Below, piece after piece: positions 7,370 to 7,814 of a DNA stretch of 9,418 bases; the stretch's first letter is position 1, and every line of letters begins with the position of its first letter. Position numbers and translations under genes: made by a program. The notes under the pieces were generated by a model. That model had not been told where the DNA came from. It saw only the letters and a list, made by a program, of their open reading frames with translations, and ran no database searches. Source of the DNA: a virus (Duplodnaviria; Heunggongvirae; Uroviricota; Caudoviricetes); IMG/VR virus record IMGVR_UViG_2778261154_000013, positions 1-9,418 of that record, one strand, 5' to 3'.

Positions 7370-7734
7370 TGATTAATCGAACCAAACTGGAGCACATTCT
7401 CGAATATGCCAGGCAGCAGAAATGTATTGGGCAACTTTGTAAAATTCCACCAGGAGATATGGTTGAAATCGTGGAAATGGCCATGCGTAAGGCTGGCAAC
7501 TCTCCGGTAACTCCGGCTGGCTGGATAAGCTGTAGTGATGCAGTTCCTGCTGAATATTGCGATGTGATTCTTCTCGATGATCTCGGGAATGTATTCCCCG
7601 GTTCCTGGGATAAGGTTTTTTGCCCCACTCGTGGCGGGAATAAGATGGCTTTTGTGGACAAAGACGGCGTTGAAGTAGAGAGCTCAACTCACTGGATGCC
7701 GCTACCGGAACCACCGCAGGAGGTGAATCAATGA
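7369..7734 (+). CDS. DUF551 domain phage protein
   Basis: 121 aa; start overlaps the upstream stop (TAATG); motifs WISCSDAVP and THWMPLPEPP are characteristic of DUF551. Confidence 0.8.
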   Translation: MINRTKLEHILEYARQQKCIGQLCKIPPGDMVEIVEMAMRKAGNSPVTPAGWISCSDAVPAEYCDVILLDDLGNVFPGSWDKVFCPTRGGNKMAFVDKDGVEVESSTHWMPLPEPPQEVNQ

Positions 7735-7814
7735 CCTGGCCTGAGGCATTCACCACGGTAGGAATTGCGATGGCGGTGGCGCTGGTGGTGTATTCGATTT
7801 GCCGTTGGGGTTAA
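7731..7814 (+). CDS. Unannotated 27-aa hydrophobic peptide (MTWPEAFTTVGIAMAVALVVYSICRWG)
   Basis: Not in the ORF track (too short). Strong SD AGGAGGTG (7718-7725) 5 nt before ATG 7731; ATGA overlap with the DUF551 stop; single predicted TM helix; stop 7812-7814 sits just before the terminator. Confidence 0.4.
   Translation: MTWPEAFTTVGIAMAVALVVYSICRWG

Follow-up and report, generated by a model that had tools for sequence, protein, structure and literature searches.

Enterobacteria possess a number of small membrane regulators, including KdpF, AcrZ, MgtS, PmrR, MgrB, and CydX, which are shorter than 50 amino acids, consist of one helix, were long missed by annotation, and bind a larger membrane protein within the bilayer. 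The inner membrane is also the target of type I toxins (Hok/Gef, TisB, DinQ, ShoB, Ibs, and Ldr) and the location of the products of phage accessory genes such as T4 Imm and HK97 gp15, which prevent superinfection or alter the envelope. In addition, an acidic N-terminal tail followed by a helix and a basic C-terminal end, as in the Pf3 coat protein, is the textbook pattern of N-tail translocation assisted by YidC or by the proton motive force. Here, we describe a 27-codon open reading frame (ORF) on the plus strand, at positions 7731–7814 of a 9,418-nucleotide stretch of a virus of the class Caudoviricetes (IMG/VR record IMGVR_UViG_2778261154_000013, positions 1–9,418; hereafter, the window). 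The results indicated that this ORF is probably a real protein-coding gene, encoding a single-pass inner-membrane microprotein of 27 residues that belongs to temperate phages and is translationally coupled to the gene upstream.

Comparison with the described systems demonstrated several similarities and differences. Like the small enterobacterial regulators, the microprotein is shorter than 50 amino acids, has one helix and almost no soluble part, was missed by annotation, and has a similar predicted orientation driven by charge. However, it has no sequence relation to them, it is phage-encoded and mobile, it is coupled through ATGA to whichever gene lies upstream, and it carries an invariant heptapeptide. 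It resembles the type I toxins in length and hydrophobicity, and a Hok locus is the next one downstream in the window; unlike them, it has no antisense RNA, promoter, or leader of its own, its translation signals are strong and coupled, and it matched neither HOK_GEF nor any other toxin family. T4 Imm and HK97 gp15 are likewise products of phage accessory genes, and the microprotein gene is located in a mosaic region of temperate phages; however, these proteins are two to four times longer and lack the WPEAF motif, and PHROGs revealed no similarity beyond one weak match, described below. Moreover, exclusion genes of the HK97 gp15 type are expressed from the prophage, whereas in the window the microprotein gene is located in a repressor-controlled early operon. 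The Pf3 coat shares the short acidic N-tail, the single hydrophobic helix, the basic C-terminal end, and the absence of a signal peptide, but the likeness concerns the charge architecture only: the microprotein is not part of the virion, and no homology was detected. The microprotein is best filed as a new family within the phage-encoded membrane microproteins, with a distinctive mode of expression; it would work most like the small single-pass regulators and the small membrane proteins of phages, and it is a member of none of these groups.

The product of the ORF is MTWPEAFTTVGIAMAVALVVYSICRWG, followed by a TAA stop codon at 7812–7814. The Shine-Dalgarno (SD) sequence AGGAGGTG is located on the plus strand at 7718–7725, within the last codons of the upstream gene, with its GGAGG core at 7719–7723, 7 nt 5′ of the ATG. 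A first-pass annotation of the window had claimed a consensus-like SD at good spacing; the element was indeed present, one base to the left of the spacing implied there. The coupling partner in the window is a DUF551 gene (7369–7734, plus strand; Pfam DUF551, PF04448, E = 3.4e-19; RefSeq WP_038341689.1). Its TGA (7732–7734) shares bases with the ATG of the ORF (7731–7733), and the ATGA overlap at 7731–7734 could be read directly from the sequence, in agreement with the first-pass annotation. The peptide starts with MTWPEAF, has no charged residues at positions 8–24, and carries Arg25 among its 27 amino acids. The mean Kyte-Doolittle hydropathy of residues 7–24, averaged over family members, was 2.08, which is consistent with the hydrophobic one-helix peptide proposed earlier. 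The stop codon is located 5–10 nt ahead of a strong bidirectional intrinsic terminator (7820–7850, both strands) of the form A5-CCCCGGA-loop-TCCGGGG-T5, with the hairpin arms AAAAACCCCGGA and TCCGGGGTTTTT; it was detected by a terminator scan, and RNA folding gave a hairpin of 15 bp. The short distance from stop codon to terminator had also been recognized correctly. Since 29 ORFs of at least 20 amino acids in the ORF list overlap the 1.4 kb between 7000 and 8400, the size of an ORF alone says nothing, and conservation is the test.

To assess conservation, approximately 300 loci were gathered from IMG/VR with amino-acid-degenerate DNA patterns anchored on either end of the peptide; a natural 40-residue stop-loss variant was also used as a query. 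Among approximately 70 distinct sequences comprising the ORF and its flanks, column entropy was near 0 from the SD to the stop codon, approximately 1.6 bits from the first base past the stop, and approximately 1.2 bits 5′ of the SD. The SD was the sole conserved stretch 5′ of the ORF (entropy of 0–0.4 at positions −15 to −8). The SD and the ORF form a discrete conserved module that extends from the ribosome-binding site to the stop codon; the terminator, which closes the early-right gene string in the window, lies outside it. Within the ORF, third codon positions had twice the entropy of the first and second positions. The first-pass annotation had named frameshifts or stops in homologs as the outcome that would refute its reading, and the frame proved to be preserved: 184 of the 192 E. 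coli-type copies, anchored on codons 1–7 only, kept exactly 27 codons, and the other eight comprised three in-frame deletions, four stop losses, and one W-to-R change, with no frameshifts. All insertions and deletions were multiples of three, and natural expansions of the 6-nt GCGATG repeat kept the frame (GIAMAMAMAMAV).

The ratio of nonsynonymous to synonymous differences (pN/pS, Nei-Gojobori) was 0.31 in the frame of the ORF and 0.49 for codons 8–19, which are free of both search patterns. The other frames gave values of 0.9–1.8, save for the antisense frame that shares the wobble positions, and that frame contained stops in 58 of 79 sequences. Judging from these substitution patterns, the ORF is under purifying selection in its own frame only. 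A 66-residue ORF on the minus strand (7728–7928) was also considered and rejected, with pN/pS values of 1.0–1.3 in its frame and a loss of conservation past the plus-strand stop. The 27-codon length was also kept by divergent homologs with 59–67% identity, such as that of BP-4795, while the P1-like SJ46 has a form of 24 amino acids; the respective peptides are MNWPEAFTAVGVAIAVAFILYSLFRWG in BP-4795, MSWPDAIVTLGMVFAAAFVVYSICRWG in PhiR12_5, MTWPEAFANVGTVMAVVLVVYSICRWR in 933W, and MSWPEAFAIVGVAMAIAAIFIFWG in SJ46.

These data also bear on the explanation that the conserved block of about 100 bp is a DNA or RNA element, i.e., a recombination linker, an RNA structure, or a small RNA derived from a 3′ end, in which the ORF is incidental. 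The block does sit at a mosaic junction with unrelated sequence on either side, and the E. coli copies mostly share more than 85% DNA identity. However, it begins at the SD and ends at the stop codon, and the doubled variation at third positions, the low pN/pS in the ORF frame, and the restriction of every insertion and deletion to multiples of three are features of a coding sequence. The homologs at 59–67% identity and the remoter members described below keep the ORF, its length, and its hydrophobicity when the DNA is unalignable. In addition, RNAalifold revealed no conserved structure among 14 diverse copies (−3.9 kcal/mol, covariation term of +0.18), there was no Rfam match on the plus strand, and the terminator is not conserved. 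Thus, an element with an incidental ORF is very unlikely.

In some strains (P0098, P0105, P0100, and P0053), in-frame expansions were observed inside the helix, in the region corresponding to 7772–7783; they comprised GIAMAMAMAMAVAL, derived from the GCGATG repeat, ALVLVV, and a duplication of 15 codons. The helix therefore tolerates lengthening, which is at odds with the otherwise fixed spacing of 17 residues.

The sequences surrounding the module were variable. At least three unrelated gene ends precede it: DUF551 (ending in PEPPQEVNQ), a zinc-ribbon/coiled-coil protein such as L0139 of 933W (ending in NIEREVNQ), and a third type (ending in GVEDVLR). The gene is thus not tied to DUF551. The ATGA overlap was nevertheless present in 158 of 164 related copies. 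Downstream of the stop codon, 24 different sequence clusters were distinguished. Among approximately 160 copies, the stop codon directly abutted a hok promoter in 72, as in hokW/sokW of 933W, and no terminator was present there; one of at least six different intrinsic terminators, including the type found in the window, followed in approximately 45; and a DUF4222 gene began 4–5 nt past the stop in 13, followed by orf3, xis, and int (BP-4795 type). Given these variable flanks, the position at the operon end and the partnership with DUF551 belong to the window and not to the gene. The earlier description of the gene as lying at the operon end consequently holds for the window, where the terminator at 7820–7850 follows, and fails for its relatives, in which the gene is internal (BP-4795 type) or lacks a terminator (933W type).

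The same variability argues against a leader or attenuator peptide, the translation of which would regulate either terminator read-through or the hok gene downstream. Such a role would suit the distance of 5–10 nt between stop and stem, at which a terminating ribosome would cover the 5′ arm, as well as the arrangement in 933W, where the ORF ends at the hok promoter. However, the downstream sequence is not conserved, with at least six terminators at differing distances, no terminator in the most frequent context, and a coding sequence that starts 4 nt past the stop in the BP-4795 type. There is neither an alternative-hairpin architecture nor covariation, and the hydrophobicity and invariant N-terminus are kept across unrelated contexts, so the product matters rather than the act of translation. 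We regard this explanation as extremely improbable.

The upstream side of the module is relevant to another explanation, in which the frame is a C-terminal transmembrane extension of the upstream protein, produced by −1 ribosomal frameshifting. The ORF is in the −1 frame relative to DUF551 and is open for 19 codons 5′ of the ATG. In one copy (IMG/VR contig 2861053794_000003, approximately 1889–2600, minus strand; L006), it is open for 237 codons and fused in frame to the preceding gene, and some NCBI entries of 25–39 amino acids name the peptide “DUF551 domain-containing protein, partial.” However, no slippery heptamer was found in 7674–7731, the ATG and SD are conserved although the upstream genes are mutually unrelated, and the fused or mislabelled entries, which are rare, resemble the outcome of frameshift errors or of faulty naming. 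The fusion in the single contig is probably a frameshift in that copy. The DUF551 label of the NCBI entries was rejected as a naming artefact, because the peptide has no match to PF04448 and the upstream protein does. An extension of this kind was the least probable of the explanations considered.

The scans with N-terminal patterns also yielded short ORFs on contigs with a G+C content of 42–66%, which share the same first seven residues and have helices unrelated to that of the E. coli peptide. Examples of these divergent members are MSWPEAFFGAVFIICVAWVYVTAIKDKDD, MSWPEAFAFVGMFAFFASVAWMVLR, MSWPEAFATVGCAFAFVAFIWILTR, MSWPEAFTIVGVAFAAVAYMWVLTRRL, and MTWPEAFLGAFIVVAAVLFFGFVTDAIKINIGGR. When the pattern was scrambled with its composition and degeneracy kept, no matches were obtained in viral contigs, versus at least 119 and at least 120 loci for the real N-terminal patterns; thus, the divergent WPEAF ORFs are not chance matches. 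As delineated in this analysis, the family is defined by the start M-(T/S/N)-W-P-(E/D)-A-(F/I), approximately 17 uncharged and mostly hydrophobic residues, K or R near position 25, and a length of 21–34 amino acids. The N-terminal motif was common to all E. coli-type peptides and to 24 distinct divergent ones, 20 of which contained a 15-residue window with a mean hydropathy above 1.9. The uncharged run after Phe7 matched that of the window peptide, with exactly 17 residues, in 11 of these 20, and the first charge past the hydrophobic run was K or R in 17 of 19.

All synonymous alternatives are in use for the Pro, Glu, Ala, and Phe codons of the motif, and this free variation at third positions indicates that WPEAF is conserved as protein and not as RNA. 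Residue 2 is Thr (ACN), Ser (AGY), or Asn (AAY), with codons that all start with A. A pattern with Ser encoded by TCN gave only five matches, far fewer than the ACN and AGY patterns, and two of the five were family-like, while Ser2 was encoded by AGY in 16 distinct divergent members. Since codon 2 almost always begins with A, the fusion of the start to an upstream TGA is itself a conserved trait. Of 19 divergent members, 14 were preceded by an ORF of 45 or more amino acids that ended exactly at the ATGA overlap. The neighbors were early or accessory genes: members were located between RecT and a YqaJ exonuclease, after MazG, after a GapR-like gene, before the antiterminator Q, and before an excisionase-like helix-turn-helix (HTH) gene. 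The window peptide shows the same N-terminus, the 17-residue run with K/R, the ATGA overlap, and the early/accessory location, i.e., all four features of the family. Taken together, the shared architecture of these predicted peptides indicates that WPEAF is a wider, undescribed family of phage microproteins.

Based on these features, the following mode of action may be proposed. Ribosomes that terminate on the upstream early gene would reinitiate at the overlapping ATG with the assistance of the SD, so the peptide would be made whenever the early operon is on. In the window, the ORF lies downstream in the repressor-controlled rightward operon, and the peptide is expected early after infection or induction, during lytic growth, rather than in a lysogen under repression. 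Given Glu5 at the N-terminal end and Arg25 at the C-terminal end, the positive-inside rule predicts an N-out/C-in insertion without a signal peptide, similar to the Pf3 coat. Trp3 and Phe7 would form an aromatic belt at the outer interface, and Tyr21 and Trp26 one at the inner interface. The sequence of the helix drifts between lineages and that of WPEAF does not; on this ground, we assign chiefly an anchoring role to the helix, which in the E. coli type also has a G11xxxA15 packing face, and regard the periplasmic heptapeptide as the functional part. The heptapeptide would most likely contact a conserved protein of the host envelope or inner membrane, rather than take part in pore formation. 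A more specific and considerably less probable version is that WPEAF on an arbitrary 17-residue anchor is a phage ligand that blocks or takes over a machine of the envelope or inner membrane, one conserved among Proteobacteria, and that the gene spreads as a “micro-moron” plugged into an upstream stop codon, requiring no promoter or independent ribosome loading. If so, it would represent a new class of early phage-host effectors.

The roles suggested in the first-pass annotation, i.e., toxin, lysis modulator, or exclusion factor, were generic. Of these, the peptide could be a membrane-damaging toxin, either type I-like or a small pore-former, which would depolarize or permeabilize the inner membrane upon activation of the early operon and thereby serve, for example, host shut-off, lysis timing, or abortive infection. 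This is a small hydrophobic peptide, comparable to type I toxins in length and hydrophobicity; toxicity upon overexpression is common among peptides of this sort, and the gene often adjoins a hok/sok locus. According to the alignment, the small-xxx-small face (G11xxxA15) could support oligomers. However, conservation is confined to the SD and ORF between unrelated flanks, which leaves no room for an antisense-RNA antitoxin, and the minus strand showed no promoter-like site in the ORF or adjacent to it. The sole Rfam match at gathering score was the sok RNA of the separate hok locus (8020–8194). A GGAGG at 7 nt together with a coupled start points to strong translation, whereas type I systems keep their ribosome-binding sites sequestered. 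The peptide had no match among Pfam, NCBIfam, or PADLOC-type families, and the most conserved part is the seven-residue N-terminus and not the helix, unlike in pore-forming peptides. A toxin is therefore unlikely, and a coupled microprotein that acts through its N-terminus is the preferred interpretation.

Several observations weigh against a translated membrane microprotein of this kind. Amino-acid-degenerate patterns inflate conservation at the anchored codons, an effect that was mitigated by analyzing the unanchored ones. The pairwise pN/pS values are not phylogenetically independent, and the value was equally low in the wobble-sharing antisense frame, which was ruled out only by its stop codons. 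Neither the peptide nor its coordinates in Sakai (1305785–1305868) occurred in those supplementary files of the Sakai ribosome-profiling paper that were available, and the peptide was likewise absent from the accessible part of the supplementary files of the Enterobacteriaceae small-ORF survey. The literature and supplements searched yielded no experimental evidence that the ORF is translated or that its product is located in the membrane. The proposed topology and the role of the heptapeptide as functional end are drawn from charge distribution and conservation only. Finally, Achromobacter, with two members, was the only host named outside enterobacteria for the divergent peptides.

The microprotein gene was almost never annotated. 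As the first-pass annotation had supposed, it is missed by pipelines: it is absent from the annotation of the RefSeq locus of E. coli FDAARGOS_944, which is 100% identical, as well as from those of 933W, ArgO145, 666R9, BP-4795, and Sakai Sp5. A few GenBank submissions list the peptide as a “hypothetical” or “bacteriophage” protein (AOM45384.1 and others). Searches of Pfam, NCBIfam, and PHROGs with the peptide and 10 divergent members produced only sub-threshold, transmembrane-like noise (KdpF, DUF883_C, PetL, and phrog_4612). The best score for KdpF (TIGR02115) was 14.7 bits against a cut-off of 26.85, with 12 residues aligned, and PHROGs gave nothing beyond the weak match to phrog_4612, a family without assigned function (E = 0.019). 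These three databases thus hold no model for the WPEAF family. There was no match of the peptide to PADLOC-type families, eight of the 10 divergent peptides had no entry in a collection of 15 billion proteins, and tblastn of a synthetic consensus and of an abundant 34-residue divergent member gave no matches among named phages. The strings MTWPEAF, SWPEAF, TWPEAF, and NWPEAF were not found in the literature searched, and the publications searched on DUF551, DUF4222, anti-small RNAs, and small phage proteins did not mention the peptide. The gene offers a concrete case for profile-based calling of microproteins in phage annotation.

Of 5426 complete E. coli genomes, 1724 were matched in a blastn search with positions 7700–7860; this is an upper bound, as a few matches span the end of DUF551 only. 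Using tblastn, the peptide was found in 94 phage records (933W, VT2-Sakai, Min27, ArgO145, BP-4795, and others) and in 226 plasmids from E. coli and Salmonella, which were mostly non-mobilizable and approximately 95 kb long, the size of the P1-like phage-plasmid SJ46. The gene may thus be present in as many as a third of complete E. coli genomes, and its carriers include the medically relevant Shiga toxin phages 933W and VT2-Sakai and P1-like phage-plasmids. The design of the family is unusually rigid, with an invariant seven-residue N-terminus, an anchor of fixed length, and a start codon that overlaps the upstream stop. The gene is also a well-defined and easily mutated candidate, in which a single change of ATGA to ATAA removes it and leaves its neighbor untouched, and it could be used to seek a new early phage-host interaction at the membrane.

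A scan of contigs of bacterial genomes with the two-anchor pattern gave mostly chance matches in high-GC genomes; genuine members were limited to Escherichia and Shigella, plus two tiny contigs labelled as Xanthomonas and Acinetobacter. Identical or near-identical E. coli-type copies were present on the latter (L204, Xanthomonas pisi, 431 bp; L224, Acinetobacter idrijaensis, 369 bp), and an E. coli-type copy was also found in the Actinobacillus phage vB_Apl-pPE4 (PP818812.1). These three copies are most likely due to contamination or misattributed hosts. The gene was absent from Qin and CPS-53, the two K-12 prophages examined. In CPS-53 (L251, 12150–12180), the end of yfdT (QQEVK and two stop codons) carries AAGAGGTGAAATAATAG, which resembles the SD and junction preceding the microprotein, and no ORF follows. 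Judging from this resemblance, the end of yfdT may be the scar of a lost copy.

The window represents the early region of a Rac/lambda-like E. coli prophage, with an early-right/nin-like gene order, and a 100% identical stretch is present in E. coli strains FDAARGOS_944 and VL40. A DicA/cI-like repressor gene (1220–1639, minus strand) is followed by genes for a Cro-like HTH protein, YdaT, a DUF1376/YdaU-type replication protein (2409–3608), and a DnaC-like loader. Next come, in this order, DUF977, DUF4406, an Ead/Ea22-like protein, a zinc-ribbon protein, DUF4014, and an HNH endonuclease. A gene for a 221-residue protein (6704–7369, plus strand) is located between the HNH and DUF551 genes; it is joined to the former by a 4-nt overlap and to the latter by a 1-nt overlap. 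Within 6252–7814, the overlaps are ATGA at the end of the HNH gene and the ATG at 6704, TAATG at the end of the 6704–7369 gene and the ATG at 7369, and ATGA at the end of DUF551 and the ATG at 7731. These junctions suggest that the four successive genes appear to be translationally coupled. The operon of the microprotein gene also includes the gene of the DUF4014 protein (6122–6340), which consists of 72 amino acids and is strongly hydrophobic. Together with the microprotein, the early region would thus encode at least two small membrane proteins besides Hok.

On the other side of the ORF, a complete hok/sok type I toxin-antitoxin locus (8020–8344, plus strand) lies 170 nt past the terminator. 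It comprises a hok coding sequence at 8189–8344 (Pfam HOK_GEF, E = 4e-23), with an in-frame upstream extension from 8132, and a sok RNA (Rfam, 118 bits, E = 9e-28). The RefSeq record of FDAARGOS_944, produced by the NCBI pipeline PGAP, lists a Hok/Gef gene 455 bp downstream of the DUF551 gene and annotates no gene in the interval. In that identical locus, the lysis cassette of holin, lysozyme, and spanin genes is located approximately 4 kb downstream of the ORF, past a Q-like region and tRNAs. The ORF is thus outside the lysis cassette and upstream of hok and nin-type genes, a location different from that of holin, antiholin, and spanin genes.

An additional observation concerned the DUF1376/YdaU-type replication gene, which is one intact ORF of 399 amino acids in the window. 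Its counterpart in the FDAARGOS_944 RefSeq record is represented by two partial pseudogene pieces approximately 400 nt apart. This arrangement suggests an inserted in-frame segment, around GGRIDIVVTDRNGVRCGIELDRNSPRQKSLLKI, beyond the coverage of the family model.

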